64,000 bases of DNA from Sideroxyarcus sp. (GCA_035299445.1 DATGWO010000035.1:132022-196021); one strand, 5' to 3'. Counted from the stretch's first letter, positions 28,032 to 42,844 are shown. Notes: a model not told the origin generated them from the letters alone. Program-made: numbers and translations.

Positions 28032-30407
28032 TTACGATCCGGCTTTTTCTTTTTCGGCCAGCCTGCGCCAAGTCTCCACCAGCGTGTCCGGATTCAGCGA
28101 CATGGTCTGGATGCCGATCTCCATCAGCCATTGGGCAAAGTCGAAATGGTCGGACGGGCCTTGCCCGCAGATGCCGACGTACTTGTCCAGCCGGTTGCAG
28201 GTGGTGATCGCCATCTTCAGCAAGGCCTTCACCGCCGCATCGCGCTCGTCGAAGCGGTCCGCCACCAGGCTGGAGTCGCGATCCAGACCGAGCGTCAGCT
28301 GGGTCAGGTCGTTGGAGCCGATGGAGAAACCGTCGAAATGCTGGAGGAACTCCTCGGCCAGCAAGGCGTTGGAAGGGATCTCGCACATCATGATCAGGCG
28401 CAGGCCGTGCTCGCCGCGCTTCAGGCCATGTTTCGCCAGCGTGGCAACCACGTCTTTCGCCTCTTGCACCGTGCGCACGAACGGGATCATCAGCTCGACG
28501 TTGGTGTAGCCCAGCTTCTCGCGCACGCGCTTCATCGCGCGGCATTCCAGCTCGAAACAATCCGAGAAGTTCGCCGCGACGTAACGCCCCGCGCCGCGGA
28601 AGCCGATCATCGGGTTCTCTTCCATCGGTTCGTAGATCTCGCCGCCCAGCAACTTGCGGTACTCGTTCGACTTGAAGTCGGACAGGCGCACGATGACCTT
28701 CTTCGGCCAGAACGCGGCGGCCAGCGTCGCCACGCCTTCGGTGATCTTCTCCACGTAGAACTCTTCCGGGCTGGCATAACCGGCGGCGCGCTTTGCCACC
28801 GCCTCGTGCAGCTTGCCCGGCAGCTTGTCGTATTCCAGCACCGCCTTCGGGTGGATGCCGATCAGGTTGTTGATGATGAATTCGAGCCGCGCCAGGCCGA
28901 TACCGGCCGACGGCAACTGCGCGAACTCGAACGCCAGCGTCGGGTTGCCGACGTTGAGCATGAGCTTCACCGGGATCGCCGGCAGCGCATCCTCGCTGTG
29001 GACCACCACCTCGAACGGCAGCTTGCCGTGATACACATAGCCGGTATCGCCCTCGGCGCAGGAAGCGGTGACGATCTCGCCGTCTTGCAGCGCAGTGGTA
29101 GCATGGCCGCAGCCGACGATCGCCGGGATGCCCAGTTCGCGCGCAATGATCGCCGCATGGCAGGTACGTCCGCCGCGATTGGTGATGATGGCGGAAGCCT
29201 TCTTCATCACCGGCTCCCAGTTCGGGTCGGTCATGTCGGTGACCAGCACGTCGCCGGCCTGCACCTTGTCCATCTCGGCGGTGCTGGCGACGATGCGCAC
29301 GCGGCCGACGCCGATCTTCTGGCCGATGGCGCGGCCTTCGGTCAGCACGGTGCCGCGCTGTTGCAAACGATACTTCTCGGTGCCGCCGTTGCCCGCATTC
29401 GACTTCACCGTCTCCGGGCGAGCCTGCAGGATGTAGAGCTTGCCGTCCACGCCGTCCTTGCCCCACTCGATGTCCATCGGCCGGCCGTAATGCTGCTCGA
29501 TGGATACCGCGTAGCGCGCCAGCTGCAACACGTCCGCGTCATTCAACGAGAACTTCGATTGATCGGCGACCGGCACCGGCTCGATGCGCGTGGAACGCCC
29601 GGCGGAGCGCTGCGCGTCGAACACCATGCGCTGCTGCTTGGAACCCAGCGCGCGGCGGATCACCGCAGGGAAACCGGCGGCGAGCTGCGGCTTGTGCACG
29701 TAGAACTCGTCCGGATTCACCGCGCCCTGCACCACCATCTCGCCCAGACCGTAGGACGAGGTGATGAACACCGCATCGCGGAAACCGGATTCGGTATCCA
29801 GCGTGAACATCACGCCGGATGCACCCAAGTCGGAGCGCACCATGCGCTGCACGCCGGCGGACAGCGCCACATCGGCGTGGGTGAAGTCCTTGTGCACGCG
29901 GTAGGAGATGGCGCGGTCGTTGTACAGCGAGGCGAACACTTCGCGGATCGCGTGCAGGATGTTGTCGATGCCGTGGATGTTGAGGAAGGTCTCCTGCTGT
30001 CCGGCGAACGAGGCGTCGGGAAGGTCTTCCGCAGTCGCAGAGGAGCGCACGGCGAAGCTGCCCTCGCCCGCCGCCGCGAGTTTGTCGTAGTGGCTGCGGA
30101 TCTCTTCTTCCAGACGCTTGGGCAGCGGCGCCTCGACGATCCAGCCGCGGATCTTGCGTCCCGCCTCGGCCAGCGCGGTGACATCGTCCACGTTCAGCGT
30201 GGACAGCGTCTGCTCGATGCGCTTGTCCAGCCCGTCGTTCGCCAGGAAGTCGCGATACGCCTGCGCCGTGGTGGCAAAGCCGCCGGGCACTTGCACGCCG
30301 GACGAGCTCAGGTTGGAAATCATCTCGCCGAGCGAAGCGTTCTTCCCGCCCACCTCGGGAATGTCGGCGATACCCAGAGACTGGAATGGAATGACGTAAG
30401 GTTGCAT
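28032..30407 (-). CDS. ppsA: Phosphoenolpyruvate synthase
   Basis: [35 protein letters not shown] (phospho-His), [15 protein letters not shown]. Confidence 0.98.
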
Positions 30408-30489: not shown

Positions 30490-30675
30490 TCAATGCCGCT
30501 CGCGCTTGCACTGTGCCTCGCCGCAACGTTTGTTGCCGCAACCGCAGCCCTCGCCTTCCTCGCGCAACGCGCCGAACTCCGGATGCCGTGCCGCGAAATT
30601 CCTGGCTGCCGCACGCACCAGCAGCCAGCCGGCGAACAGCCCGAATACGATCAATACAGTCTTGAGGTAAATCAT
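30490..30675 (-). CDS. Small TM protein with a 4-Cys tail, last gene of the rnf operon (NqrM-like architecture)
   Basis: [61 protein letters not shown]; start overlaps the rnfA stop. Confidence 0.75.
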
Positions 30676-31262
30676 TCTCCTGCCCCCAATCCGGCAAAAC
30701 CCATGAAGGTCAGCGACAGCAGGCCAGCGAGGATCAGCGACAGCGCCGTGCCCTGCACCAGCGCCGGCACATTGGCCAGCTGCAACCGTTCGCGCAGCGA
30801 CGCCATCAGCACCAAGGCCAGCGTGAAACCGGCGCCGCCCGCGAACGAGAAGGTCAGCGATTGCGTGAAGTCGTATTCGCGCGCGGTCTGGAACAGCGCC
30901 ACGCCCAGTACCGCGCAGTTGGTGGTGATCAGCGGCAGGTAGATGCCCAGCGCACGGAACAGCGCCGGGCTGTATTTCTTCATCACCATCTCCACCAGCT
31001 GCACCGACGAGGCGATCACCACGATGTAGGAGATCAGCCGCAAGAACTCGAGATGCAGCACGCCCAGCAGCCAGTTCAACCCGTAGGCACACAGCGAGGC
31101 CACGACCATCACGAAGGTGGTCGCCACGCCCATCGGGAACGCCGTGCCCAGGCGTCCCGATACGCCGAGGAAAGGGCACAGGCCAAGGAACATGGCCAGC
31201 ACGAAGTTGTTGGTCAGCAGCGTGCCGATGAAGATCTGGCTCAGCGAATCAGTCATGTCCAT
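30672..31262 (-). CDS. rnfA: Rnf complex subunit A
   Basis: NNFVLAMFLGLCPFLG, LPLITTNCAVLG. Confidence 0.95.
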   Translation of the reverse strand: MDMTDSLSQIFIGTLLTNNFVLAMFLGLCPFLGVSGRLGTAFPMGVATTFVMVVASLCAYGLNWLLGVLHLEFLRLISYIVVIASSVQLVEMVMKKYSPALFRALGIYLPLITTNCAVLGVALFQTAREYDFTQSLTFSFAGGAGFTLALVLMASLRERLQLANVPALVQGTALSLILAGLLSLTFMGFAGLGAGE

Positions 31263-31890
31263 TGCCTCCTTCCATCGCTGCCTTCCTGCTGCGCAGCAGC
31301 GAGAACAGCAGCAGCCAGCCGCCCAGCACGAAGAAGCCGCCCGGCGGCAACACCATCACCACCCAGGGCTGGAACTGCTCGCCGAACAGCGCGACGCCGA
31401 ACAGCTTGCCCGCACCCAGGATCTCGCGCGTCGCACCCAGCGCCAACAGGCCGATGGTGAAGCCGATGCCCATGCCCAGCGCGTTGACCACAGCCTTCAG
31501 CGGCGGGTTCTTCGAGGCATGTGCCTCGGCGCGCCCGAGGATGATGCAGTTCACCACGATCAGCTGGATGAACGCACCCAATGCCTCGTACAGCTTCAGG
31601 CTCACCGCCTGGATCAGGTAATCGACCAGCGTCACGAAGGTCGCGATGATCACGATGTAGGTCGCGATGCGCACTTCCTTTGGCACCAGGTTGCGGATCA
31701 GCGACACCAGCAGGCAGGAACTGACCAGCACAAAGGAGGTGGCGAGGCCCATCGACAGCGCGTTCTCCGCGGAGACGGTGACCGCCAGCGTCGGGCACAT
31801 GCCCAGCACCATCACGAACACCGGGTTCTGCCGCCACACGCCTTCCATGAAGGTGTCGAAGGTGATCGCTTGATCGGCTTGTCGGCTCAT
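31249..31890 (-). CDS. rnfE: Rnf complex subunit E
   Basis: NPVFVMVLGMCPTLAV, LIVVNCIILGRAE, LPPGGF. Confidence 0.95.
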   Translation of the reverse strand: MSRQADQAITFDTFMEGVWRQNPVFVMVLGMCPTLAVTVSAENALSMGLATSFVLVSSCLLVSLIRNLVPKEVRIATYIVIIATFVTLVDYLIQAVSLKLYEALGAFIQLIVVNCIILGRAEAHASKNPPLKAVVNALGMGIGFTIGLLALGATREILGAGKLFGVALFGEQFQPWVVMVLPPGGFFVLGGWLLLFSLLRSRKAAMEGGNGHD

Positions 31891-32558
31891 GGCTGCAACT
31901 CCTTGATATGCGGGACCAGCAGCGGCATCAGCTTCTGCGCGCTGTCGTTGAGGCCGCGCCCGACCGCTTTCGATGTCACGGTGGCACCGGCGATGGCATC
32001 GATCTCCCAGGCGTTCTGCTTGCCGCCGTGCTTGACCACCTTCACCGCGTTCGCCAGCGCCTTCATCTCGGCATCGACGCGCACGTCGAGCGCCTCGAAG
32101 TTCTGCAGGAAGGCCTGGTCGGTGATGATCTTGTCGCCGATCCCCGGCGTCTCGCGCATGGATACTACGCCGATGCCGACGATGCACTGGCAGGCCGCGT
32201 CGTAGCCGTACAGCACGCGCACCACGTCGGCATAACCCTTGCCGGCGGCTTCGGCAGCGATGCCCTTCAGCGCGCCGGACTGGTCGTAGGCCGCATAGAA
32301 CTTCACGCCGCCTTCCGGCATCGCGCCCGTCAGCGGCTGGATGCCTGCCGGCGTCGCGGCGAACTCCTTCACGCTGGCCGCGCCCGGCAGCACCTTGAAC
32401 ACCGCGCGCTCCAGCGTGACACGCTTGTTCTCGGCGATGGCCTCCTGCGTGCCTTCGAAGGCACCGACGATGAGCACACCGCAGAAGCCGGCGACCAGCA
32501 CCATGGTGGCGATCATCCTGCCGCCCGGCGTGATCTGGTTTGGCAGCGGCTCGTTCAT
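31887..32558 (-). CDS. rnfG: Rnf complex subunit G (FMN-binding)
   Basis: TM anchor, ETPGIG, DAIAGATVTS flavinylation motif. Confidence 0.92.
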   Translation of the reverse strand: MNEPLPNQITPGGRMIATMVLVAGFCGVLIVGAFEGTQEAIAENKRVTLERAVFKVLPGAASVKEFAATPAGIQPLTGAMPEGGVKFYAAYDQSGALKGIAAEAAGKGYADVVRVLYGYDAACQCIVGIGVVSMRETPGIGDKIITDQAFLQNFEALDVRVDAEMKALANAVKVVKHGGKQNAWEIDAIAGATVTSKAVGRGLNDSAQKLMPLLVPHIKELQP

Positions 32559-33592
32559 TTGCCCCTCCGCTGGCGCGTGCCGAACACGCGCGGCTGGGTG
32601 TACTGGTCGATCAGCGGGGTCAGCGCATTGCCGAGCAGGATCGCGTACATCACGCCTTCGGTCAGCCCGCCGAAATAGCGGATCATCACCGTCACCACGC
32701 CGATCACCGCGCCGTAGATCCACACGCCCACCGGCGTCACCGGCGAGGTCGCCATGTCGGTCGCCATGAACAGCGCGCCCAGCATCAGGCCGCCGGAGAA
32801 CAGCACGAGGTGGATGGGCGGATAGGTCACCGGATCGTACAGGCGGAACAGCCAGGCGACCAGCAGCGCGCTGCCGAGCACCGCCACCGGGATGCGCCAG
32901 TCCATGAACTTGCGCACCGCAAGGTACAAGCCGCAGATCCCCAGCAGCAGGGCCGAGGTCTCCCCGGTCGAGGCGCTGACTGCGCCGGTCACCAGGTCCT
33001 GCAACGGATAGACGAAGTGCTCGAATTTCCAGCGCGCCAGCGGCGTCGCGCCGGTGAAGCCGTCGACCGATGCCGCCGCGACCCAGCCGCTATTGTCGTT
33101 CGGCAGCATGAACGGCAGCGTCAGCGTGGACGGGGCGAATTCGGTGAAGCGCTGCGGCGCATAGGCCGGCACCCAGATGGTGATAGCGGCGGGGAACGAA
33201 GCCTGCACGAAGGCGCGCCCCACCAGCGCCGGGTTGAACACGTTGTGGCCGAGGCCGCCGAACAGCGCCTTGCCGACGGCGATGGCGACGAAGCCCGCCA
33301 CCGCGCCCATCCACAGCGGGAAGGCGGGCGGCAGCGTCAGCGCGAGCAGCAGGCCGGTGATGACAGCGCTCCAGTCGCCCAGCGTGCTCGCCTGCCCCGC
33401 GGTGCGATTGAACAGCCGCTCGGTGGCAAGGCAGGCGGCGGTGACGGCAAGCAGCAACGCCAGCGCCGAGAGGCCGTATTGCCACACTGAGAAGGCGCAG
33501 ATCGGCAGCAGCGCCAACACCACGTGCAGCATGATGCGCTCCACGCTGCGGTCGCTGACCAGGTGCGGCGAGGTACGGAGTTCGATGCTCAT
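32555..33592 (-). CDS. rnfD: Rnf complex subunit D
   Basis: TSPH, FGGLGHNVFNPALVGR, DGFTGATPL, FMATD. Confidence 0.95.
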   Translation of the reverse strand: MSIELRTSPHLVSDRSVERIMLHVVLALLPICAFSVWQYGLSALALLLAVTAACLATERLFNRTAGQASTLGDWSAVITGLLLALTLPPAFPLWMGAVAGFVAIAVGKALFGGLGHNVFNPALVGRAFVQASFPAAITIWVPAYAPQRFTEFAPSTLTLPFMLPNDNSGWVAAASVDGFTGATPLARWKFEHFVYPLQDLVTGAVSASTGETSALLLGICGLYLAVRKFMDWRIPVAVLGSALLVAWLFRLYDPVTYPPIHLVLFSGGLMLGALFMATDMATSPVTPVGVWIYGAVIGVVTVMIRYFGGLTEGVMYAILLGNALTPLIDQYTQPRVFGTRQRRGK

Positions 33593-34923
33593 GCGGCGAC
33601 TTTCTCCCGATTGAACGCCTTTGCTACCCGGAACTGCTGCACCAAGGGGATATGCGACGGGCAGACGTAGCTGCAGCAGCCGCATTCGAAACAACGATCC
33701 AGATTGTAGCGCTCCGCCATCATTCCGTATTCGCGTTTCGCCGCCAGCAAGCCGAGCTGCGAAGGATTGAGGAACTTGGGGCAGACGTTCACGCATTCGC
33801 CGCACTTGATGCAGGCGTAGCTGCGTTGCGCTTCCGCGCTCGCTTCGGCGAAGGCGAGCACGCCCGAGGTGCCCTTGGTCACCGGCACATCCAGCGACGC
33901 GACGGTCATGCCCATCATCGGGCCGCCGAGGATGATCTCTTGTGCGCTGCTGCGCGCGCCGACCTGTTCCAGCACCCAGCGCAGCGGCGTGCCGATCGGC
34001 ACGATGTAGTTGCCGGGTCGTGCCACGGCCGGGCCGGCCACGGTCAGCACACGCTCGACCATGCCCTCGCCCGCCGGCAGCAGGCGGCCGAGATAGGCCA
34101 GCGTCATCACGTTGTTCATCAGCACGCCGATGGAGGCGGGACGTTGTCCGGCCGGTATCTCGCGGCCGAGCAGGGCATAGATGATGGTGTCTTCCGCACC
34201 TTGCGGATACTTGGTCTCCAGCGCCTGTACGGTGATCGCGCCGTCGGTCGGCAGTGCGGCGCGGATCGCCGCGATGGCGTCCGGCTTGTTGTCTTCCACG
34301 CCGATGATGGCATGCGGCGCGCCGCTCACCTTGAGCGCGATGCGGATGCCGCGCAGCAGGTCCTGCGTGCGTTCCACCATCACACGGTGGTCGCAGGTGA
34401 GGAAGGGTTCGCATTCGGCGCCGTTCACCACCAGCGTGTCTATCTTCACTTCTGGCGGTAGCGAGAGTTTCACATGCGCCGGGAAGGTGGCGCCGCCCAA
34501 ACCGGCGATGCCGGTCCGCTGTATCGCGGCCAGCAACTCCTGCTTGTCCATGGCTTCGATGTCGCACGGCTGCCCCGCCCGCACCTGCTGCCCGTCCGCC
34601 TCATACACGCGGATGGTGATGGAATCGACCATCTTGCCGTTGGCCGCCGGCATCGGGCCTATCGCTTCCACCACGCCGGTGGCCGGTGCATGCACCGGCA
34701 GCGACATCATGCCGTCGGCCGTGGCGATGAGCTGGCCGCGCAGCACCTCCTCGCCCACGCTCACGCAACACACGGCCGGTTTGCCGATGTGCTGCGACAG
34801 CGGCACGACCAGCCGTGGCGCGAACGCCATGCGCCTGATCGGCAGGCTGCCGGTCTCCTTGTGGTACACGGGATGGATGCCGTGCTCGAAGGTCGCCGCG
34901 CGATGGAAGAAAGGCAGTCGCAT
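33589..34923 (-). CDS. rnfC: Rnf complex subunit C (short form)
   Basis: GLGGATFP, NGAECEP, GGPMMG, CIKCGECVNVCP, CFECGCCSYVCP. Confidence 0.96.
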   Translation of the reverse strand: MRLPFFHRAATFEHGIHPVYHKETGSLPIRRMAFAPRLVVPLSQHIGKPAVCCVSVGEEVLRGQLIATADGMMSLPVHAPATGVVEAIGPMPAANGKMVDSITIRVYEADGQQVRAGQPCDIEAMDKQELLAAIQRTGIAGLGGATFPAHVKLSLPPEVKIDTLVVNGAECEPFLTCDHRVMVERTQDLLRGIRIALKVSGAPHAIIGVEDNKPDAIAAIRAALPTDGAITVQALETKYPQGAEDTIIYALLGREIPAGQRPASIGVLMNNVMTLAYLGRLLPAGEGMVERVLTVAGPAVARPGNYIVPIGTPLRWVLEQVGARSSAQEIILGGPMMGMTVASLDVPVTKGTSGVLAFAEASAEAQRSYACIKCGECVNVCPKFLNPSQLGLLAAKREYGMMAERYNLDRCFECGCCSYVCPSHIPLVQQFRVAKAFNREKVAA

Positions 34924-34930
34924 CTTCGTC

Positions 34931-37900
34931 TCAGTTGAACTTGGCCGCCCGTGCCTTCAGTTTTTCCAGGTTCGGCTCGCTCATGTTCCAGGGCGTACCG
35001 GGGTGGATGACGCCGGCGGTGCATTTTTCCGCCGCTTTAACGAGGTCCAGATAACTGCCCGCCTTCGGGTCGAGGACGATGACTTTTTTCGTTTCATTGT
35101 AGGCAAACACCTTGGGGTTGATATTGATGCATTCGTCGCAGGCGGTGCATTCCGGCGTGTCGATCCACACCGGATCGTAGCCGTCGGCATTCGCTGCGGC
35201 CTGGGTGACGACCGTCGCCGGTTGTGCCGTTGCATTGCCGCCGTCCGGCCCTGCGGAGAGTTGCTGGATCAGCTCCTGCCGCACACGGGCGGCGATGGCG
35301 CTCTCGTCCGCCGCTGCGACTGCACGCCCCACGCCGGCCACATCCTTGAGCTGCTTCCAGAACTGCAAGCGCTCTTCGCAGGAGTGCACCATCTCGGCCG
35401 ACACCAGCACGCGCATCAGGCGCTGCTTCTTGTCCACCGCCCAGATGAAGGGGAACTTGCCTTCGCGCCCGTCCGCGTCCAGCTTGAGGAAATCGGCCAG
35501 CAGCAGCATGTCGTCGTTCCATGTCTCCGGCGGCGCCTTCTTGAACTGCTTGGCAAAGCGGCCTTCGGACAGGGCGAAATCGGCGAAGGTCAGCGGCAGC
35601 GTCATGCTCTTCTTCTCGCCATCCTCCAGATATTCCAGCTTGTAGGCGATCCAGTCCGCCCCCAGCTCGGGATTGCCCTGCAGCGAGACGCTCTCGGAGA
35701 AAGTCACGCCGGCATCCGGATCGAACACGAACAACGGGAAGGCGCGCGACTCGGTCGCCATCTTGCTCTGCGCGACGGCGCTGTTGTCGCCGACGCCGTG
35801 CTCGGGCGGGCACACCGCGTACACGTTGAACAGGGCCGGGCGGCGGCTGTTGATGCCGTCGATGAAGCTCTCCAGCATGTGCGTGATGTTGCCCTGCGAC
35901 AGCTGCGCCACGTAGGAGGTGCGGTGCGCCATGCCGATTACGCTGATCTCCTTGCGCATCTCGGTCTTGCCGTGCTGGCTCGCGCCATAGGGCGACATGT
36001 CGGCCACCTGGCCGATGAAGCCGGAAGTGCAAGCCTGGCCGCCGGTGTTGGAGTACACCTGCGTGTCGACGATGAGGATCTTCACCGGCTTGCCGGACAT
36101 CAGCGCGCGCGACAGGTTCTGGAAACCGATGTCGAACATCGCGCCGTCGCCGCCGACCGCCACCACCGGCGGGCACAGCAACCATTCCTCGTCGTTGAAC
36201 TGCTCCCAGTTGAAGCGGGCGAAGAAACCATCCTGCTCGGCGGGATCGTAACCGCCCGCCAGTTCCTTCTCGGCCTGGCGCACGACCTTGAAGCCTTCCG
36301 CCATCTTGGCCATGTGGCCCTCGAACACGCCCATCGCGACGGACGGCGAATCCTGGAACAGGTGCGATGTCCACGGAAAGGGATAGGGGTTGAACGGGAA
36401 GGTCGAGGCCCATACCGAGGTGCAGCCGGTGGAATTGACGATGCCCATCTCGGCACGGCCGTTCTTGCTCGGACCTTCCATGTAACGCCAGCGCAAGTCC
36501 TTCAGCTTCTCCAGCATCTGGCTCACACGCTTCAGCCATTGAGGATCGATGGGCTGGCCGGAATGCCTGGCCAGCAGGCTCTCGGACAGATTGGCCAGGG
36601 TGAGGTCGCGGCCCTTGTGCTGCTGCACGGCCTCCATCAGCGCCGTGGTGTCGGTCAGGTCGACCGTGGAGCTGAGCTTCATGCGGACATGGTTCTCCAG
36701 GTCGGCGATCAGCTTGTCCAGCCTGGCGACGAACTTCTTCACGCGCGGCTGTTGCAGCGCAGTGACCGTGGCGGTGAACAGGTGGATGGATCCCTTCTCG
36801 CCGCAACCCAGGCAGGCGCCGTCGCCGCTGACCAGCGACATGTAGTTGTGCTTGTCCAGCAGCAGCGTTTCCAGCGCGCCGACTTTCTCGTCGAGATCGT
36901 CGATGCGACTGTATTGCGCCGGGGTGGTGGGCAGGTCGAGCCAGAAGTTCCAGTCGCGGCGCAGTTCGGCGATGGATTCCTTGGTCTGCGTGACCATCTT
37001 CAGCGCGTCGTCCTCGCACACATCCACGCACAGCGCGCAGCCCTTGCAGGTGTAGGGATTGATGGTGATGGAGAACAGGCCGCCAGTCCCCTTCTCTTTC
37101 TTTTCCTTCAGATTCCAGTACGGCTTGGTGGTGGCCAGCTTGAAGCCGCCGATCTCTGTGCGCAGCAGGTTCAGTTCGGCTTCCAGCTTGTTGCGCTCTT
37201 CGCCTTGGGCGGCGTCCTCGGCGAACGCCTCGGTGATGGCATTGGCCAGCAGTGCGCGCACGTCGAGACCGTCACGGTCCAGCGCGACGCGCAGTTTCTT
37301 CTCGATGGCACGGCTGAATTTGCGCAGGAAGCGGGTCGGGCGTCCGCCGATCTCGATGTTCTGGATGGCGGTGTTGAGCACATCGGCAGGTGTGGAGACC
37401 AGGCCGGGGATGGCGCTGTCCGGGCAGGTGGTGAAGCAGTTGCCGCAGGCGGTGCAGTTCTCCGCCTTCCATTCCGGATGCTCGAAACGCACGCCGGTCA
37501 TGTCGCGATACACGCCGGTCACGGCGGGGATCACCGACAATCCGATGAACGGGTCGACCAGGTTGCCGGAGCCTTCGCCCTGCATGTAGAAGCTGCCGGT
37601 CTGCTCCCAGAAACGGTGCACGTCGGAGACGCCGCCGTCGCCCTCCGGCAGACGTTTGAGCATGATCGGCAACGAGGCGGCCGTTTTTCCCGCCGCTTGC
37701 GCGCGCAGGCCTACCTTCATCAGTTCCGGCGCGATCTCGTGCATCTCGTCATAACCGCGGCGCACCACGCGCAGATTGTCCTCGACGATGCGCTTGCCCT
37801 TCTTGCCGAACTTGGATTCGAGCTGGTTCTCGATGGCGGTGAACAAGGTCTCTTCGGACAGGCCGGCGCGCTCCTTCACATCGGAGGCGCGGAAGAACGC

Positions 37901-39853
37901 GCCCTGGAAGGCGTTGCCCTGCATGCGCAGCTGCAGGTCGACATTGCTCGACTCCTCGCGCGCAATCTTGAACGCGTCGAGATAGAACACGCGCAGCTGC
38001 TTGTCCACGATGTACTTCTGGATGTGCCTGGGGAAGCTGGCCCACAGCGCTTCGGCGGAACCGAGGTTGCTCTGGATGATGAACACGCCGCCCTTGTTGA
38101 GGCCTTCCACCGCGTTGGTGTGACCGAACACTTGCGGGTCCGGCGACATCACCACGTCGACGTTGGTGTACTCGCAGTTGATGCGGATGGGTTCCGGCGC
38201 AGCCGACAGGTAGTAGGTGGTCGGCTGCCCCTTCTTCTCGGAACCGTATTTCGGATTGGCCTTGATGTCCCAGCCCAGCAGCTCGAACAGGGTCATCGCC
38301 AGGTTCTTGCCGGTAGTCACCATGCCCCAGCCGCCGATGGAATGCATGCGCACCGCGATGGCGCCCTTGGGCAGCAGGTTGGGGTTCTCGGAGCCGCGCA
38401 AAGCCAGCTCCTTGATGTTCGGGTAGGCAGCCTGCAATTCCTGCTGGCGGATCTCCTGTTTCGGATTGGCGGGGTCGCGCACGAAGTCCACCGACAAGTA
38501 GAAGAACTTGCGATGAGCGGCACCGGGCAACATGTTCTCGACCGCGGCGATCAGGCCTTCCGGTTGCAGATCGCGCGAACCCAGGCCGTAGCAGCCGGAG
38601 TACAGCGACGGCATCTCCTTCGCCGTTTCGTAGCAGGCGTAATCGGCGTAGGTCTTGTCGCGGCCGTTCTCCAGGCACTTGGTCACGGTGGCGCGCACTT
38701 CGCGCATCAGCGGCAGGTCTTCCGACAGCGGCTGGTCGGTGCGCTCCAGCACGGCCACGCCTTTCTTGCCCTTGAGCAATTGGCCCAGCACATCGCCAGG
38801 GAACGGGCGGAACATGGTGACGTTGACCACGCCCACCTTGAGCTGGCGGTTCTCGCGCAGCCAGTCGGCAACGGCTTCGGCCTGCACGACCATGCTGCCC
38901 TGGCCGAGGATGAGGTAGTCGGCGTCGTCGCAACGGTAAGCTCCCAGACGACCGTAGCGGCGGCCGGTCAGTTTGCAGAACTCTTCTGCGCTCTGGTCGA
39001 ACAGCGCGGGGATGTGGTCGAAGAAATAAGGACGTTGCGCGGCCACCGCCTGCATGTAGGCGTCCTGGTTCTGCACCACGCCGGTCTGCATGGGATTGTC
39101 CACATCCCAGGTGGACGGCACGCGGCGACGCTTGGGACCGTACAACATCTGCTGCGCGGGAGTCGGGGTATCGATCAGGTCGTCGGCGTCGCCGAGATAT
39201 TCGGCGATCAGCTCCTTCTCGGGCACCATCATCGGCTCGATCAGGTGGGTGGTGAGAAAGCCGTCCTGCGCGACGATGGCCGGGGTCAGCGACAGTTCGG
39301 CGGTCTTGCGCGCGATCATATTGAGGTCGGCGGCTTCCTGCGCATTCTTGGCGAACACCTGGATGAAGCCGGTGTCGTCGGCGCAGTGGTAGTCGTCGTG
39401 CGCACAATGCACGTTGAGCGAGGCCTTGGTGATGGCGCGGCAGCCGAGGTTCAGCACATAGGGCAGGCGCTTGCCGACGGCGGCGTATAGCGACTCATGC
39501 ATGAAGGCCATACCCTGCGCGGAGGTGAAATTGACCGCGCGCAGGCCGGTCATGGAAAGACCGGCGGTGACGCCGGCGGCGGCATGTTCCGATTCCGGCT
39601 CGACGAAGATCAACGGCTTGCCGGCGGCATTCAGATGTCCCTTGGCGACTTCCTCGGCCCAGTATTCGCCCATCTGCGTGGACGGCGTGATGGGGTAAGC
39701 GCCCGCACCTTGCGACGCTTCGCGCTCCACCATGATGACGGCGGTGTTGCCGTCGATGGCGTCGCGCGTACCGGGATACTTGACCTTGGTGCGCGCGCCT
39801 TCGGAACCGGTGGCGGCGTCGTTCGATTTGAACAGTTTGAATTTGTTGAACAT
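34931..39853 (-). CDS. por: Single-chain pyruvate:ferredoxin oxidoreductase (NifJ/Por family), 1640 aa, with inserts and a fused C-terminal ferredoxin
   Basis: DGNTA, YPITPS, GGWG, CTACGNC..CP, CKGCALC..C, GACLGCGE, NSTGC, GGDG, YSNTGGQ; C-terminal CTACDEC...C. Confidence 0.92.
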   Translation of the reverse strand: MFNKFKLFKSNDAATGSEGARTKVKYPGTRDAIDGNTAVIMVEREASQGAGAYPITPSTQMGEYWAEEVAKGHLNAAGKPLIFVEPESEHAAAGVTAGLSMTGLRAVNFTSAQGMAFMHESLYAAVGKRLPYVLNLGCRAITKASLNVHCAHDDYHCADDTGFIQVFAKNAQEAADLNMIARKTAELSLTPAIVAQDGFLTTHLIEPMMVPEKELIAEYLGDADDLIDTPTPAQQMLYGPKRRRVPSTWDVDNPMQTGVVQNQDAYMQAVAAQRPYFFDHIPALFDQSAEEFCKLTGRRYGRLGAYRCDDADYLILGQGSMVVQAEAVADWLRENRQLKVGVVNVTMFRPFPGDVLGQLLKGKKGVAVLERTDQPLSEDLPLMREVRATVTKCLENGRDKTYADYACYETAKEMPSLYSGCYGLGSRDLQPEGLIAAVENMLPGAAHRKFFYLSVDFVRDPANPKQEIRQQELQAAYPNIKELALRGSENPNLLPKGAIAVRMHSIGGWGMVTTGKNLAMTLFELLGWDIKANPKYGSEKKGQPTTYYLSAAPEPIRINCEYTNVDVVMSPDPQVFGHTNAVEGLNKGGVFIIQSNLGSAEALWASFPRHIQKYIVDKQLRVFYLDAFKIAREESSNVDLQLRMQGNAFQGAFFRASDVKERAGLSEETLFTAIENQLESKFGKKGKRIVEDNLRVVRRGYDEMHEIAPELMKVGLRAQAAGKTAASLPIMLKRLPEGDGGVSDVHRFWEQTGSFYMQGEGSGNLVDPFIGLSVIPAVTGVYRDMTGVRFEHPEWKAENCTACGNCFTTCPDSAIPGLVSTPADVLNTAIQNIEIGGRPTRFLRKFSRAIEKKLRVALDRDGLDVRALLANAITEAFAEDAAQGEERNKLEAELNLLRTEIGGFKLATTKPYWNLKEKKEKGTGGLFSITINPYTCKGCALCVDVCEDDALKMVTQTKESIAELRRDWNFWLDLPTTPAQYSRIDDLDEKVGALETLLLDKHNYMSLVSGDGACLGCGEKGSIHLFTATVTALQQPRVKKFVARLDKLIADLENHVRMKLSSTVDLTDTTALMEAVQQHKGRDLTLANLSESLLARHSGQPIDPQWLKRVSQMLEKLKDLRWRYMEGPSKNGRAEMGIVNSTGCTSVWASTFPFNPYPFPWTSHLFQDSPSVAMGVFEGHMAKMAEGFKVVRQAEKELAGGYDPAEQDGFFARFNWEQFNDEEWLLCPPVVAVGGDGAMFDIGFQNLSRALMSGKPVKILIVDTQVYSNTGGQACTSGFIGQVADMSPYGASQHGKTEMRKEISVIGMAHRTSYVAQLSQGNITHMLESFIDGINSRRPALFNVYAVCPPEHGVGDNSAVAQSKMATESRAFPLFVFDPDAGVTFSESVSLQGNPELGADWIAYKLEYLEDGEKKSMTLPLTFADFALSEGRFAKQFKKAPPETWNDDMLLLADFLKLDADGREGKFPFIWAVDKKQRLMRVLVSAEMVHSCEERLQFWKQLKDVAGVGRAVAAADESAIAARVRQELIQQLSAGPDGGNATAQPATVVTQAAANADGYDPVWIDTPECTACDECININPKVFAYNETKKVIVLDPKAGSYLDLVKAAEKCTAGVIHPGTPWNMSEPNLEKLKARAAKFN

Positions 39854-39862
39854 GATTTTCCC

Positions 39863-40744
39863 CTATGCTTCTGCGGTGACAGGTAACGGTTCGATGCGGA
39901 TGATCTTCTTGGCGGCCTTGCCTTTGCCGATGTGGCCGCCTTCCAGCCAGACGATGGCGCCGGTGGGGCAGCGCTCGATGGCGGCTTTGCTGGCGGATTG
40001 GTTCCTGGCATAGTCGATCACGGCGAGGTTGCGCTGCAGGCTTATCAGGCCGTCGGCCGCATCGGCCACGCAGCGCCCGCAGGCAGTGCAGGCCACTTCG
40101 CAGGCGGCTTCGGCGGTATCGGGATCGGATTCGTTGCGGCAGGCCATCCACAGTTTGTGCGACACGCCCTGGATGGAGAACAGGCCCTTGGGGCAGATAT
40201 CGACGCAATCGCCGCAGGCAGTGCACTTGTCCACATCGACCACGGGCAGGCCGTGCTGATCCATGGCAATGGCGTCGAAATCGCACACGTCGGCGCAATC
40301 GCCCAGACCCAGACAGCCCCAGGCGCAGCTCTTGCCGCCGCCACCGGCCACCGCCGCCGCACGGCAGGAGGACAGGCCGGAATACCGGGCGCGCATCCTG
40401 GCGACATGCTTGCCGCCGGCGCAGGCCAGCCGCGCCACGCGCTTCTCGATGTCGCCCAGGGCGACGCCGAGCAATGCGGCGATGGTCTTGTTCTGGTCGG
40501 GGGTGTTTACTGTGCAGCGGCCAGGCTCAATCTGGCCGGCGACCGCCTGTTCGGCGAAATTATGGCAACCGGCCGTGCCGCAGGCACCGCAATTGGAATG
40601 GGGGAGCAATTCTTCGACTTTTTCGATGCGCGGGTCTTCGAACACATACAGACGCTTGCTGGCGATGGCCAAGAAGAACGCCAGCAAGCCGCCCAAGACG
40701 GCCATGAACGCTCCGGTGACAAATACGCTGTATGCGATACCCAT
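39863..40744 (-). CDS. rnfB: Rnf complex subunit B (long polyferredoxin form)
   Basis: TM anchor, LPHSNCGACGTAGC, CAWGCLGLGDCADVC, CTACGDCVDICP, CEVACTACGRC, RCPTGAI. Confidence 0.93.
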   Translation of the reverse strand: MGIAYSVFVTGAFMAVLGGLLAFFLAIASKRLYVFEDPRIEKVEELLPHSNCGACGTAGCHNFAEQAVAGQIEPGRCTVNTPDQNKTIAALLGVALGDIEKRVARLACAGGKHVARMRARYSGLSSCRAAAVAGGGGKSCAWGCLGLGDCADVCDFDAIAMDQHGLPVVDVDKCTACGDCVDICPKGLFSIQGVSHKLWMACRNESDPDTAEAACEVACTACGRCVADAADGLISLQRNLAVIDYARNQSASKAAIERCPTGAIVWLEGGHIGKGKAAKKIIRIEPLPVTAEA

Positions 40745-40954: not shown

Positions 40955-40977
40955 TTTTGCCGCAGGGGGAGACCGGG

Positions 40978-41916
40978 ATGGCGGAAGACAAACAAAGCTA
41001 TTACAAGAACAATCGCATCAAACAGATGCGGGCATTTTGCGAAGTGGTGCGCACCGGCAGCGTCACTCTGGCGGCACAACACCTGTTTCTGAGCCAGCCT
41101 TCGGTGACCCTGCAGATCCAGGCGCTGGAGCGCGAGTTGGGCGTGACGGTATTCGAGCGGCGCGGCCCGGTGCTCAAGCTGACGCCGGACGGCGAGACGT
41201 TGTATGCCTTATCCGAGCCGCTGGTGAAAGGCGTGGACAGCCTGGAGGAGAATTTCGCCGCCCAGCACGGCAAGCTCGATTCGGGTGAATTGAACATCGG
41301 TGCGGGCGAATCCACCATCCTGTACATCCTGCCGGAGGCGGTGCGCCGCTTCGTCAGCGCGCACCCGCGCATCCAGCTGAAGATCCACAACGAGACCGGC
41401 CGCGACGGCCTGAAGATGTTGCGTGCCGATGAGATCGACCTGGTGGTCGGTTCCATGCTGGACGTGCCCGACGACATCACCTACCAGCCGGTGGTGACCT
41501 TCGACCCGGCGCTCATCGTGCCCTTGGGCCACCCGCTGGCGAACCGCACCGAGGTCACGCTGGAAGACATCAGCCACTACGGCCTGATCCTGCCGCCGCG
41601 CCACCTGTCGACCTGGCGCATGGTGAAATACGTGTTCCAGCAGCACAACCTGAACTTCACCGTGACGCTGGAGGCGGGCGGCTGGGAGGTGATCAAGAAA
41701 TATGTCGAGCTGGGCATGGGCATCTCCATCGTCACCGACATCTGCCTCACCGGCAACGAGAAGCTGGTGCGCATCCCGCTCAAGCAGTATTTCCCGCAAC
41801 GCGGCTACGGCCTGGTGCTGCGCAAAGGCCGTTTCCTGTCGCCGCAAGCCCGACGCTTCGTCGAAATACTGTACGAGGTATACGGCCTCAAGTCGGAACT
41901 CAACGCTCGGGATTGA
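40978..41916 (+). CDS. LysR-family regulator (CysB/CbbR-like substrate domain)
   Basis: [30 protein letters not shown] helix-turn-helix. Confidence 0.93.
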
Positions 41917-42715
41917 GTTCCTGCATCAACTGCACCGACAGCTCCTCGATCGATTTCGCCGTGGTGTCGAACCATTTGATACCTTCGCTACGCATCATCT
42001 TTTCGGCAGCGGCGACCTCATAGCGGCAGTTCTCCAGCGACGAATATTTGCTGTTCGGGCGGCGCTCGTTGCGAATGCGGTGCAACTGTTCCGGCGCGAT
42101 GGTGAGTCCGAACAGCTTGCTGCGGTAAGGCAGCAAACGCGAGGGCAGTACGCCGCGCTCGAAATCCTCGGGGATGAGCGGATAGTTGGCCGCCTTCAGC
42201 GAGAATTGCAAGGACAGGTACAGGCTGGTCGGTGTCTTGCCGCTGCGCGACACGCCGACCAGGATGATGTCGGCATTCTTGAGGTCGGCGTCCGACACGC
42301 CGTCGTCGTGCGCCAGCGCAAAGTTCATCGCCGCGATGCGCGAGTTGTATTCCGGGTTGGCATGGCCGTGCGAACGGCCAACGGCGCGGGTATAGCGCGC
42401 ACCGAGCTCCTGCTCGAGCGGTACGATGAAGGCATCGAACAGGTCGATGAAGAAGGCTTCCGCCTGATGCAGTATCTCGCTGAATTCCGAATTGGTCTGC
42501 GTCATGATGACGATGGGGCGCTCGGTTTCGCGCCGGCTCAATTCGTTGATGCGCGCCAGGCAGTCGCGGACTTTCTCCTCGCTGTCGACGAACGGGAACC
42601 GCAACGGCTTGAACTCGATGCCCTCGAACTGGGCCAGCAAACCATGCCCCAGCGTTTCGGCGGTGATACCCGTGCCATCCGACACATAGATCACTGTACG
42701 TTTTTGAGTGGCCAT
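41900..42715 (-). CDS. ppsR: PEP synthase regulatory kinase/phosphorylase (PpsR, DUF299)
   Basis: [32 protein letters not shown]. Confidence 0.95.
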
Positions 42716-42797
42716 CGTTCCGCTTCCTGAATGAATGATTCCATTTTTATCTATCCCAATGCGGTACACGCCAAGGGATTCTAACCTTGTAGATAAC

Positions 42798-42825
42798 AAA
42801 AAGGCCTGCTCGCGCAGGCCTTTTT
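42798..42825 (-). terminator. Intrinsic terminator after symporter 1
   Basis: aaaaaggcctgc-tc-gcgcaggcctttt, A/T-flanked. Confidence 0.7.
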
Positions 42826-42844
42826 GCACAACTACGACTTCGGC

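Follow-up and report, generated by a model that had tools for sequence, protein, structure and literature searches.

In Sideroxyarcus sp., a long-form, single-chain 2-oxoacid:ferredoxin oxidoreductase (OFOR) is encoded inside an rnf operon and ends in a ferredoxin-type domain held on a linker predicted to be disordered. On balance, we lean slightly towards the view that this tethered domain is a built-in carrier that links the OFOR to the Rnf complex encoded around it, with the reductive direction the likelier one here. The window analysed is a stretch of 64,000 nt (GCA_035299445.1 DATGWO010000035.1:132022-196021), and all positions refer to it.

An OFOR gene within a complete rnf operon

The OFOR gene (34931-39853, minus strand, 1640 aa) lies between rnfB and rnfCDGEA, which are followed by a PEP synthase gene. 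The segment 34931-35345 on the minus strand comprises the stop codon and the final 137 codons of this open reading frame. The features of the locus are as follows:

28032-30407, minus strand: PEP synthase gene ppsA, ~791 aa from MQPYVIPF (PPDK_N, PEP-utilizers and PEP-utilizers_C domains)
30490-30675, minus strand: 61-aa membrane protein with a Cys-rich tail, last of the rnf genes
30672-31262, minus strand: rnfA, 196 aa (Rnf-Nqr family)
31249-31890, minus strand: rnfE, 213 aa (Rnf-Nqr family)
31887-32558, minus strand: rnfG, 223 aa (FMN_bind domain)
32555-33592, minus strand: rnfD, 345 aa (conserved in loci L001-L012)
33589-34923, minus strand: rnfC, 444 aa, short form (RnfC_N, Complex1_51K, SLBB and Fer4 domains)
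34931-39853 including the stop codon, minus strand: long-form single-chain OFOR, probably acting on pyruvate (Pfam domains, homologues)
34934-34993, minus strand: conserved C-terminal extension beyond the ferredoxin core, residues 1621-1640, ending in ...TPWNMSEPNLEKLKARAAKFN
34994-35176, minus strand: ferredoxin core of the OFOR tail, residues 1560-1620, with putative [4Fe-4S] ligands Cys1569, Cys1572, Cys1575 and Cys1611
35177-35257, minus strand: predicted flexible linker of the OFOR, residues 1533-1559, SAGPDGGNATAQPATVVTQAAANADGY (low pLDDT, poor conservation)
36974-37486, minus strand: OFOR domain V, residues 790-960, with two CxxCxxCxxxC motifs
39863-40744, minus strand: rnfB, 293 aa counted from Met14 of the open reading frame (TM anchor, PF04060 Fe-S motif, two Fer4 motifs)
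40957-41916, plus strand: divergent LysR-type regulator (adjoins rnfB in 12 of 12 family loci)
41900-42829, minus strand: ppsR-like PEP synthase regulatory kinase/pyrophosphorylase (PF03618; syntenic in L002, L004 and L009)

Pfam and homology searches showed that all six Rnf subunits are encoded together, in the order B-(OFOR)-C-D-G-E-A. Only 9 nt separate rnfB from the OFOR start codon, and 7 nt separate the OFOR stop codon from rnfC. The 61-aa membrane protein at the end of the rnf genes has tblastn matches in nine of the 12 family loci and in L036, L086, L092, L101 and L108. A second, canonical rnfABCDGE cluster is located 30 kb away in the same genome, and the RnfB of the OFOR module is a distinct long form that is 25% identical to this canonical RnfB. 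The module RnfB also has an extra C-terminal motif, CTACGRC...(33 aa)...CP. We considered whether the OFOR tail is homologous to this motif and rejected the idea, as the match was marginal (13 bits) and driven by the Cys motif.

An ORF motif search of the 64-kb window returned no ORF with a CxxCxxC motif besides RnfB, RnfC and the OFOR. The claim of the first-pass annotation that the operon has no free ferredoxin gene thus holds, for ferredoxins of the CxxCxxC type, in the entire window. We also rejected a frameshift or gene-fusion artefact: more than 100 homologues from independent assemblies, 73-90% identical to the OFOR, encode the same protein of 1634-1667 aa, and the frames are uninterrupted in 12 family genomes. 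In environmental data, matches to the sequence were found in DNA metagenomes only.

The enzyme body retains the canonical cofactor sites

We annotated the OFOR using Pfam and recovered the domain order I, II, III of single-chain PFOR-type enzymes (POR_N at residues 50-276, E 1.2e-47; PFOR_II at 311-392, 3.8e-13; POR at 507-702, 3.4e-28), along with Fer4 motifs near residues 797-812 and 933-953 and TPP_enzyme_C at 1229-1291. The two CxxCxxCxxxC motifs of domain V, assigned to the medial and distal clusters, occupy residues 800-810 and 936-946. They are ~135 aa apart and enclose an insertion of ~125 aa that is typical of the long OFOR family. The TPP-binding GDG...N motif begins at residue 1235 (GGDGAMFDIGFQNLS begins at 1234). 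By analogy, Cys1014, Cys1017, Cys1144 and Cys1275 are candidate ligands of the proximal cluster; across 44 relatives, Cys1144 never varies and Cys1275 hardly ever does. The tail-bearing OFORs that are catalytically complete form class A, and each of the 23 full-length class A relatives examined keeps the two domain V motifs, the GDG...N motif and the candidate Cys of the proximal cluster. Judged by its sequence, the OFOR is a catalytically complete long form, with the three canonical cluster sites and the TPP motif intact. The ppsA and ppsR context suggests pyruvate as its substrate or product.

The classic homodimeric PFORs (D. africanus, 1B0P; Moorella thermoacetica, 6CIN; NifJ) share with the OFOR the domain order I, II, III, V, VI, the three [4Fe-4S] sites and the TPP motif. 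The phmmer match to 6CIN has an E-value of 4e-90; against 1B0P there are two matched stretches in all, and the best match listed covers residues 33-821. However, identity to the classic enzymes is only ~25-30%, and the OFOR is ~420 aa longer owing to the domain V insert (~125 aa), a helical insert of ~125 aa before Cys1144, an extra C-terminal region, and the linker and tail. The OFOR scores 410.9 bits with the NifJ equivalog model TIGR02176, under the curated cut-off of 911, and is therefore not filed as a NifJ equivalog.

The C-terminal tail is a ferredoxin-type domain

The OFOR tail is a single-[4Fe-4S] ferredoxin-type domain of the D. africanus Fd I kind, with a putative cluster. That a ferredoxin is fused at the C-terminus had been proposed in the first-pass annotation, and the peptide quoted there, VWIDTPECTACDECININPKVF...AAEKCTAGVIHPG, is found exactly in the OFOR translation. 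The Fer4 HMM scan of the last ~80 aa that it had recommended gave a hit to Pfam Fer4_13 at residues 1564-1617 (27.4 bits, above the gathering cut-off of 24.5). When the whole genome was searched with Fer4_13, the tail (34.7 bits, E 8.6e-8) was the sole match above the cut-off. Among PDB sequences, phmmer matched the tail to D. africanus Fd I (1DAX/1FXR, E 2e-5), and in the alignment to 1DAX Cys1569, Cys1572, Cys1575 and Cys1611 are in register with the cluster ligands. The AlphaFold2 model of the tail has a pLDDT of 92 and a pTM of 0.84. Its best Foldseek match is again Fd I (1FXR; rmsd 0.8 Å over 58 columns, target TM 0.85), and the top six matches are all small single-cluster ferredoxins (target TM 0.58-0.85). 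None of the four Cys varies in sets of 20 and 60 diverged tails, the 60 being 41-81% identical to the tail of the window and drawn from many phyla. These results agree with the earlier assignment of the CxxCxxC plus distal Cys pattern to single-cluster ferredoxins. A chance Cys pattern was considered and is ruled out by the profile, fold and conservation evidence.

The size of the domain, previously given as ~65 aa, is better described as a ferredoxin core of ~61 aa plus a conserved C-terminal extension of 20 aa (IHPGxP...RAxxF). The IHPGxP motif spans the boundary between core and extension, and the I, H, P, G, P and R do not vary among the 60 tails, which cover all three of the architectures described below. 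In the AlphaFold2 model the extension forms a helix (residues 77-84 of the 88-aa tail). In many relatives Pro follows the fourth Cys, but the window has Thr there, which counts against the carrier mechanism discussed below.

As the first-pass annotation had stated, the tail is additional to the internal motifs. Because the three canonical sites and the TPP motif are all intact, the tail cluster predicted from the sequence would be a fourth. Classic PFORs have no such fourth site; domain VII of the D. africanus enzyme (1B0P ~1170-1231) is a cluster-free cap, and the tail does not match it, small ferredoxins being the only PDB entries that match the tail. D. africanus Fd I is itself a redox partner of D. 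africanus PFOR. The monocluster ferredoxins (1FXR/1DAX; T. maritima, 1VJW; D. gigas Fd II, 1FXD; P. furiosus, 1SIZ) have the same CxxCxxC...C pattern as the tail, at 24-33% identity and an rmsd of 0.8-2.0 Å for the top five. Unlike them, the tail is fused to the OFOR through a linker, has the extra C-terminal helix and, in the window, has Thr after the fourth Cys.

The linker between the TPP domain and the tail is predicted, from the structural model and from sequence variation, to be a disordered tether of variable length. Its pLDDT is <50 for residues 1535-1556. In 44 relatives its length ranges from 28 to 105 aa; Ala makes up 25% of it, Gly 15% and Pro 8%. Column identity is 0.17 in the linker and 0.70 in the tail. 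The earlier description of this linker as Ala/Gln-rich needs a small correction: in the window it is Ala/Gly/Thr/Gln-rich and across the family Ala/Gly/Pro-rich. The design recalls the lipoyl arms of 2-oxoacid dehydrogenase E2 subunits, in which a small carrier domain on a variable, flexible, Ala/Pro/Gly-rich linker works beside a TPP enzyme that decarboxylates 2-oxoacids. The likeness is one of design only: the carrier group is lipoamide in one case and a putative Fe-S cluster in the other, there is no homology, and swinging of the tail is hypothetical.

Linkage of the tail to rnf is very strong but not exclusive

We collected tail-bearing loci with a back-translated DNA pattern for AAExC(4)IHPGxP. 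The resulting 119 loci are a sample and not a census, since tails that vary at these positions are missed. Among the matches listed, rnf genes adjoin the tail gene in 76 of 119. Where the sequence continues for 1 kb or more downstream of a class A OFOR, rnfC comes directly next in 46 of 48 cases among the matches listed, and these rnfC-adjacent loci belong to Pseudomonadota, Bacteroidota, Gemmatimonadota, Acidobacteriota, Myxococcota, Planctomycetota, Verrucomicrobiota, Calditrichia and Rokubacteria. Within the family (Gallionellaceae), all 12 relatives with the long form share the arrangement of lysR divergent from rnfB-OFOR-rnfCDGEA, and ppsA is present in eight of the 12 stretches fetched. 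An even sample of 401 Pseudomonadota genomes contained two carriers, which is too sparse for statistics, and the only other match has the same operon. Carriers of this catalytically complete lineage include iron oxidisers, purple sulfur bacteria, sulfur-oxidising symbionts, a methanotroph, Flavobacteriia, Gemmatimonadota, Acidobacteriota, Myxococcota and Planctomycetota, among others.

Not all tails are linked to rnf. Among the matches listed, 32 of 119 belong to degenerate scaffolds whose operons are of the nfnAB-like/korAB type and whose fetched loci contain no rnf genes. The operons of this rnf-less class C combine the tail protein with KorAB and an NfnAB/GltD-like NAD(P)H oxidoreductase pair, and such a pairing with NAD(P)H modules fits a carrier role. 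The degenerate scaffolds of classes B and C have kept the tail and lost the CxxCxxCxxxC cluster motifs of their own chain, and the only element shared by all three tail architectures is a domain-VI-like scaffold that precedes the tail. The expectation that the fusion would be confined to rnf-embedded PFORs is therefore contradicted by the class C loci. Embedding in rnf also requires no tail on the embedded protein, because tail-less long paralogues occupy the same slot between rnfB and rnfC in class B operons. Since the IHPGxP...RAxxF extension is present without rnf as well, it cannot be a docking motif specific for RnfB. The earlier interpretation of the fusion in terms of Rnf is supported in part.

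We compared these loci with the classic PFORs (~1200 aa) of sister genera, none of which (0 of 9) has a tail or is embedded in rnf. In three of the nine loci a canonical rnfABCDGE seems to lie near the classic, tail-less PFOR. As sister genera seem to pair the two in this way, a free ferredoxin is evidently able to do the job. No free ferredoxin gene was seen beside these classic PFORs with a GC3 filter, which may miss genes. At locus L138, a LysR orthologue with 81% identity adjoins a classic PFOR.

A proposed tethered carrier between OFOR and Rnf, and alternative readings

In the mechanism that we slightly favor, the tail would accept electrons one at a time from the distal cluster in domain V, or hand them to it, and exchange them with RnfB, the cytoplasmic Fe-S subunit of the Rnf complex encoded around the OFOR. 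NADH, the ion gradient and the pyruvate/acetyl-CoA + CO2 couple would thereby be connected without a free ferredoxin pool. As hypotheses, a swinging shuttle and a supercomplex of Rnf and OFOR are both plausible; the idea, also raised in the first-pass annotation, that such an arrangement limits the loss of low-potential electrons to O2 is hypothetical too. In the reductive direction, NADH and the membrane potential would drive electrons through Rnf and the tail into the OFOR acting as pyruvate synthase, and PpsA would convert the product to PEP, for C2 assimilation or anaplerosis. Gene context makes this direction likelier, because the operon runs into ppsA, a pyruvate dehydrogenase E1 is present in the genome, and a genome search for isocitrate lyase gave only a partial family match and none that was convincing. 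What the domain is, how it is conserved, the character of its linker and the linkage to rnf are observations; cluster binding, the partnership with RnfB, the swinging motion and the direction of the reaction are inferred.

The same observations can be read in other ways. The tail, with its fourth cluster, could be docked on its own enzyme as a static extension of the internal wire, an exit port for soluble ferredoxin, flavodoxin or any other acceptor, with no swinging and no dedicated contact to RnfB. The domain-VI-like scaffold is all that the three architectures have in common, and the invariant extension could bind it. In addition, RnfB subunits elsewhere take soluble ferredoxins, according to an Rnf review (PMC12174285), and relatives manage with a classic PFOR, a nearby canonical Rnf and no tail. 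We nevertheless consider this reading unlikely, as a linker that is disordered in the model, poorly conserved and so variable in length would be unusual for a fixed domain. Moreover, in classes B and C the chain has lost its CxxCxxCxxxC motifs, so that the tail there extends no internal wire of its own chain, and the fact that different phyla keep the gene between rnfB and rnfC speaks for a dedicated partner. Another reading makes the tail a protective or regulatory cap comparable to domain VII of D. africanus PFOR. Its main task in microaerophiles and aerobes would be to keep O2 away from the distal cluster or to act as a redox sensor, and it would carry no catalytic flux. The carriers are largely microaerophilic or aerobic (iron oxidisers, methanotrophs, Flavobacteriia, Gemmatimonadota), and a protective C-terminal extension has a precedent in PFOR (PMC13768988; PMC12337175). 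However, the tail has a full ferredoxin fold in the model and four invariant Cys, and its sequence does not match the 1B0P C-terminus. Scaffolds that have lost the CxxCxxCxxxC motifs to be shielded still carry it, and a fixed cap would be badly served by so long and floppy a linker. Of the readings considered here, we give this one the least credence.

It is also conceivable that the tail is a general-purpose tethered ferredoxin whose partner is not Rnf, delivering low-potential electrons from the OFOR to consumers such as nitrogenase, assimilatory reductases or an Nfn-like enzyme, in which case the linkage to rnf would come only from a common regulation of low-potential electron metabolism. 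Class C has the same tail in a non-Rnf context, the genome has its second, canonical rnfABCDGE, and in papers on Gallionellaceae Rnf is connected with nitrogen fixation (PMC10734482). Against this, attachment to a large dimeric enzyme would suit a carrier poorly if it had to serve many dispersed partners, and the order rnfB-OFOR-rnfC with its 7-9 nt gaps is kept across many phyla. The divergence of the module RnfB from the genome's canonical RnfB, with its long form and extra Cys motif, also counts against this reading, which we regard as quite improbable.

Comparison with previous descriptions

The gene order of the window has been described before. In the rnf2 cluster (rnfBCDGEA) of the Solemya velum gill symbiont, a PFOR gene lies between rnfB2 and rnfC2, and pyruvate was suggested as the electron donor (Dmytrenko et al. 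2014, PMC4287430). The window has this same order, and a symbiont protein of the family (P0325), which contains PF13370, shows 59% identity across the C-terminal 851 aa. That report concerns gene order only; the ferredoxin tail, the breadth of the family, the variant architectures and biochemistry are absent from it. Another atypical PFOR is the two-subunit enzyme of Magnetococcus marinus (Mmc1_1741/1742), which is ~30% identical to the Moorella enzyme and has an unusual domain arrangement (PMC12337175, PMC13768988). It demonstrates that divergent PFORs can be active in both directions; three clusters were fitted and no ferredoxin tail is mentioned (PMC12337175, PMC13768988). We liken it to the OFOR by description alone, as a PFOR with unusual domains, and it was not named among the matches of two protein searches.

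We found no description of the tail in the literature searched. A PFOR review of Nov 2026, the latest in the literature searched, covers domains I-VII only, and a keyword search of the 2025 Rnf review gave no link between Rnf and a PFOR. The tail thus looks undescribed beyond automatic Pfam labels and the gene-order remark of 2014.

Implications

In the usual picture, PFOR and Rnf are two separate enzymes of anaerobes, and a pool of diffusible ferredoxin connects them. A broader proposal, which we put forward tentatively and hold to be somewhat doubtful as a whole, is that Rnf and the long OFOR form one membrane-bound, ion-translocating NADH:(acetyl-CoA + CO2)/pyruvate oxidoreductase that uses no free ferredoxin. 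The tail would swing from the distal cluster to the additional cluster domain at the RnfB C-terminus and back. Microaerophiles and aerobes, in nine or more phyla, could in this way use NADH and membrane potential to build pyruvate out of C2 units and CO2, or could conserve energy from pyruvate oxidation, with low-potential electrons kept out of an O2-exposed pool, and the korAB-linked variants may be the same design for 2-oxoglutarate. If the tether does wire the two enzymes together, it would define a new bioenergetic unit, capable of pyruvate synthesis driven by NADH and the gradient or of energy-conserving pyruvate oxidation in oxygen-exposed bacteria. It would also offer a compact design for engineering ferredoxin-dependent carbon fixation, and models of acetate assimilation and CO2 incorporation would change for these abundant environmental groups.

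The long OFOR and its C-terminal ferredoxin domain

The minus strand of the window (G+C ~62%) encodes a long 2-oxoacid:ferredoxin oxidoreductase (OFOR) with a complete Pfam domain set. Its features, given in nucleotide positions or protein residues, are as follows.

34931-39853, minus strand: long OFOR, ORF of 1640 aa
Residues 50-276: POR_N (Pfam)
Residues 311-392: PFOR_II (Pfam)
Residues 507-702: POR (Pfam)
Residues near 797-812 and 933-953: Fer4 motifs (Pfam)
37051-37453, minus strand: insertion 1 of the long family, residues ~812-935, between the two domain V cluster motifs
About 36424-36801, minus strand: insertion 2 of the long family, between Cys1017 and Cys1144, before the TPP domain
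Residues 1229-1291: TPP_enzyme_C (Pfam)
Residues 1564-1617: Fer4_13 (Pfam; 27.4 bits, gathering cut-off 24.5)
34931-35345, minus strand: stop codon and last 137 codons, the region flagged by the first-pass annotation

The best solved relative is the Moorella PFOR 6CIN (E 4e-90), which matches in two stretches, and the score against the NifJ equivalog TIGR02176 (NCBIfam) is only 411 bits, below the 911 cut-off. Judged by these matches, the protein is therefore classed as a divergent long OFOR, not a classic PFOR. Two mostly helical insertions of ~125 aa distinguish the long family from classic PFOR.

The first-pass annotation had proposed a ferredoxin fused to the C-terminus, and the tail peptide that it quoted occurs verbatim in the ORF. 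The profile scan that it called for returned Fer4_13, and a genome-wide search (2.69 Mb) found this tail to be the sole Fer4_13 match above cut-off. Among all PDB sequences, the only matches to the last 96 residues were small ferredoxins with a single cluster, namely D. africanus Fd I (E 2e-5), D. gigas Fd II and T. maritima Fd; their cluster ligands are in register with Cys1569, Cys1572, Cys1575 and Cys1611. In diverged tails aligned as sets of 20 and of 60 sequences (identity to the window's tail 41-81%), the four cysteines never vary; the same holds for the AAE motif that precedes the last Cys and for the IHPGxP...R motif beyond it. For the last 88 residues, AlphaFold2 gives a model (pLDDT 92, pTM 0.84) whose top Foldseek matches are 1FXR (target TM 0.85; rmsd 0.8 Å across 58 columns), 1VJW, 1FXD and 1SIZ, and which contains one extra helix beyond the ferredoxin core. 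The profile and PDB matches, invariant cysteines and predicted fold uphold the proposed domain: to the extent that sequence and models can tell, the tail is a real ferredoxin domain. Since the three canonical cluster sites of the OFOR are intact, as is its TPP motif, the putative cluster held by the tail would be a fourth, additional to the internal clusters as had been claimed.

When the last 600 residues are modelled, confidence is high for the TPP domain and the tail, and pLDDT falls below 50 at residues 1535-1556. We compared the linker, taken as the span from the last core helix to the tail, across 44 catalytically complete relatives. It is 28-105 aa long (median 46, the window's being the shortest), and Ala makes up 25% of it, Gly 15% and Pro 8%. 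Column identity reaches 0.70 and 0.73 in the tail and the TPP domain, respectively, against 0.17 in the linker. These properties are the signature of a predicted flexible tether.

Gene neighbourhood

The minus-strand gene order is rnfB, OFOR, rnfC, rnfD, rnfG, rnfE, rnfA, a 61-aa Cys-tailed membrane protein and PEP synthase. Junctions in the rnf/OFOR series are few-base gaps or overlaps, and PEP synthase lies 82 nt beyond the membrane-protein gene. A LysR regulator gene is divergent from rnfB, followed by a ppsR-like kinase gene.

39863-40744, minus strand: rnfB
39968-40102, minus strand: extra RnfB motif CEVACTACGRC...(33 aa)...CP, ORF residues 228-272, C-terminal to the usual Fe-S sites
30490-30675, minus strand: 61-aa single-helix membrane protein with a 13-residue tail motif, overlapping the rnfA stop codon
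C35:101200-106300 and C38:231800-233800 (contigs of the same genome, outside the window): canonical rnfABCDGE and multi-subunit OFOR

Besides RnfB, RnfC and the OFOR, no ORF in the 64-kb window has a CxxCxxC motif; for ferredoxins of this motif type, the operon indeed lacks a free gene, as first reported. At a distance of 30 kb, the genome contains another rnf cluster, of the canonical rnfABCDGE type. The RnfB of the window's module is a long form, with ~100 aa more than the canonical RnfB, to which it is only 25% identical. Similarity between its extra motif and the OFOR tail is marginal (13 bits). The canonical cluster is of the proteobacterial type, and its RnfC is long; also outside the window, the genome encodes a separate OFOR made of several subunits. 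By tblastn, 9 of 12 Gallionellaceae loci have the 61-aa membrane protein in this position. It was also found in five other fetched loci: L036 and L086 (close relatives labelled Proteobacteria), L092 and L108 (Rhodocyclaceae/Rhodocyclales) and L101 (Thiorhodococcus).

The host family is Gallionellaceae, and the top named matches are Sideroxydans lithotrophicus and Sideroxyarcus (84% identity each). The long form is present in 12 of 60 other family genomes (13 of 61 counting the window's own). All 12 loci share the lysR|rnfB-OFOR arrangement and the start of rnfC; the fetched sequence reaches rnfA in 10 and includes ppsA in 8. Other genera of the family encode a classic ~1200-aa PFOR, ~28% identical to the window's OFOR, and none of nine such control loci has the tail or the rnfB/rnfC embedding. 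Within Gallionellaceae, the tail goes together with the rnf-embedded long form. In three of the nine controls (L138, L140 and L141, from genomes G011, G004 and G016), the classic PFOR is followed by a PPDK/PpsA-like gene, and canonical rnfABCDGE lies 2-5 kb downstream. A LysR orthologue, 81% identical to the window's, precedes the classic PFOR in L138. The exchange of classic and long PFOR resembles non-orthologous gene replacement inside a single regulatory unit. A PFOR-Rnf-PEP functional axis therefore seems to be family-wide.

Three tail-bearing architectures

We searched the last 600 aa of the OFOR against 1.8 billion representative proteins. The same C-terminal tail was found on many diverse long OFORs and on many ~800-870-aa proteins, and it is absent from other long forms. 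We also scanned GTDB species genomes with a back-translated AAExC(4)IHPGxP DNA pattern, which gave at least 120 loci. True C-terminal tails were present in 119 of the 120 loci listed, comprising 64 of class A, 23 of class B or unclassified and 32 of class C.

Class A contains complete enzymes of 1640-2000 aa. Among the loci listed with ≥1 kb of downstream flank, rnfC comes next in 46 of 48; rnfB is usually immediately upstream where that flank is available, and Bacteroidota place it after rnfA instead. Cultured carriers with rnf include Marichromatium gracile DSM 203, Thiorhodococcus mannitoliphagus DSM 18266, Methylotuvimicrobium sp. KM1, Flavivirga rizhaonensis, Seonamhaeicola aphaedonensis and Aquiflexum sp.; MAGs with rnf come from Gemmatimonadota, Acidobacteriota, Myxococcota, Planctomycetota, Verrucomicrobiota, Calditrichia and Rokubacteria. 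Class A-like tails in a Methylomarinum MAG (L037) and an Acidobacteriota chromosome (L109, CP070717.1) have no rnf in >4.8 kb downstream. These are rare exceptions to rnf embedding, with any rnf genes located elsewhere.

The typical class B order is korA-korB-X-rnfB-Y-rnfCDGEA (whole 8-kb loci L053, L063, L064, L022, L033 and L099). X is a degenerate ~800-890-aa copy of the domain VI region that keeps the tail, lacks CxxCxxCxxxC and usually lacks the TPP motif. Y, between rnfB and rnfC, is a tail-less PFOR paralogue of 1450-1590 aa that keeps both domain V CxxCxxCxxxC motifs and lacks the GDG...N TPP motif; it resembles an electron-wire protein without catalytic function. The tail gene is directly followed by rnfB in 16 of the 23 class B or unclassified loci listed.

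Class C has the order nfnA-like (DHODB_Fe-S_bind), nfnB/GltD-like (Fer4_20 and Pyr_redox_2), korA, korB and a degenerate scaffold with the tail. Examples are L041:417-7999, L029, L032, L048, L058, L061, L085 and L118, among others. The scaffold is a ~740-870-aa degenerate domain VI region of long OFOR ending in the same tail; it has lost the CxxCxxCxxxC cluster motifs and usually the TPP motif, and no Pfam domain is found in it at E≤1e-4. Carriers include Alphaproteobacteria, Burkholderiales, Actinomycetota, Chloroflexota, Acidobacteriota and other groups. No rnf genes occur within the fetched 8 kb in any of the 32 class C loci among the 119 listed, so the fusion is not confined to rnf-embedded PFORs. 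Overall the trait is rare, with the tail in 2 genomes of an even sample of 401 from Pseudomonadota.

Proposed role of the tail

The tail is invariably found with an OFOR, either its own polypeptide or an adjacently encoded KorAB, and with a partner on the NAD(P)H side, which is Rnf or else an NfnAB-like pair. This constant pairing is what a dedicated one-electron carrier between the two would show. Gene order suggests RnfB as its partner in the window. The first-pass annotation had interpreted the fusion as a tethered shuttle between RnfB and PFOR, perhaps within a supercomplex. Both ideas would be consistent with the linker being floppy, with there being no free CxxCxxC-type ferredoxin gene, with the long RnfB and with the deeply conserved gene order. 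Three observations constrain them: the tail also occurs apart from rnf; its conserved terminal helix is common to rnf-less class C and so cannot be an RnfB-specific docking motif; and tail-less paralogues also occupy the rnfB-X-rnfC slot. The interpretation is thus supported in part: the ferredoxin domain, the linker and the rnf linkage stand, exclusivity to rnf does not, and the shuttle and supercomplex are plausible proposals.

Gene context favours pyruvate synthesis, driven by NADH and the gradient and feeding PEP, because the genome encodes PDH E1, a genome search gave only a partial match to the isocitrate lyase family, and the operon continues into ppsA with ppsR alongside.

PFOR and Rnf have been named separately in Gallionellaceae genome papers. 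For the Solemya velum symbiont, a 2014 genome paper (PMC4287430) noted a PFOR gene flanked by rnfB2 and rnfC2 and proposed that pyruvate serves as electron donor; we find that a Solemya velum symbiont protein (match P0325) belongs to the long OFOR family and carries PF13370. Automatic Pfam labels already assign Fer4_13 to these long OFORs. A review of PFOR diversity (November 2026, PMC13768988) describes domains I-VII without the ferredoxin tail, a keyword search of a 2025 Rnf review (PMC12174285) found no Rnf-PFOR link, and our literature search turned up neither biochemistry nor structures for the tail-bearing lineage. The long tail-bearing OFOR is an uncharacterised, widely conserved form of a known enzyme kind, of which the window's is a typical member, and it makes ferredoxin-free Rnf-OFOR coupling directly testable.
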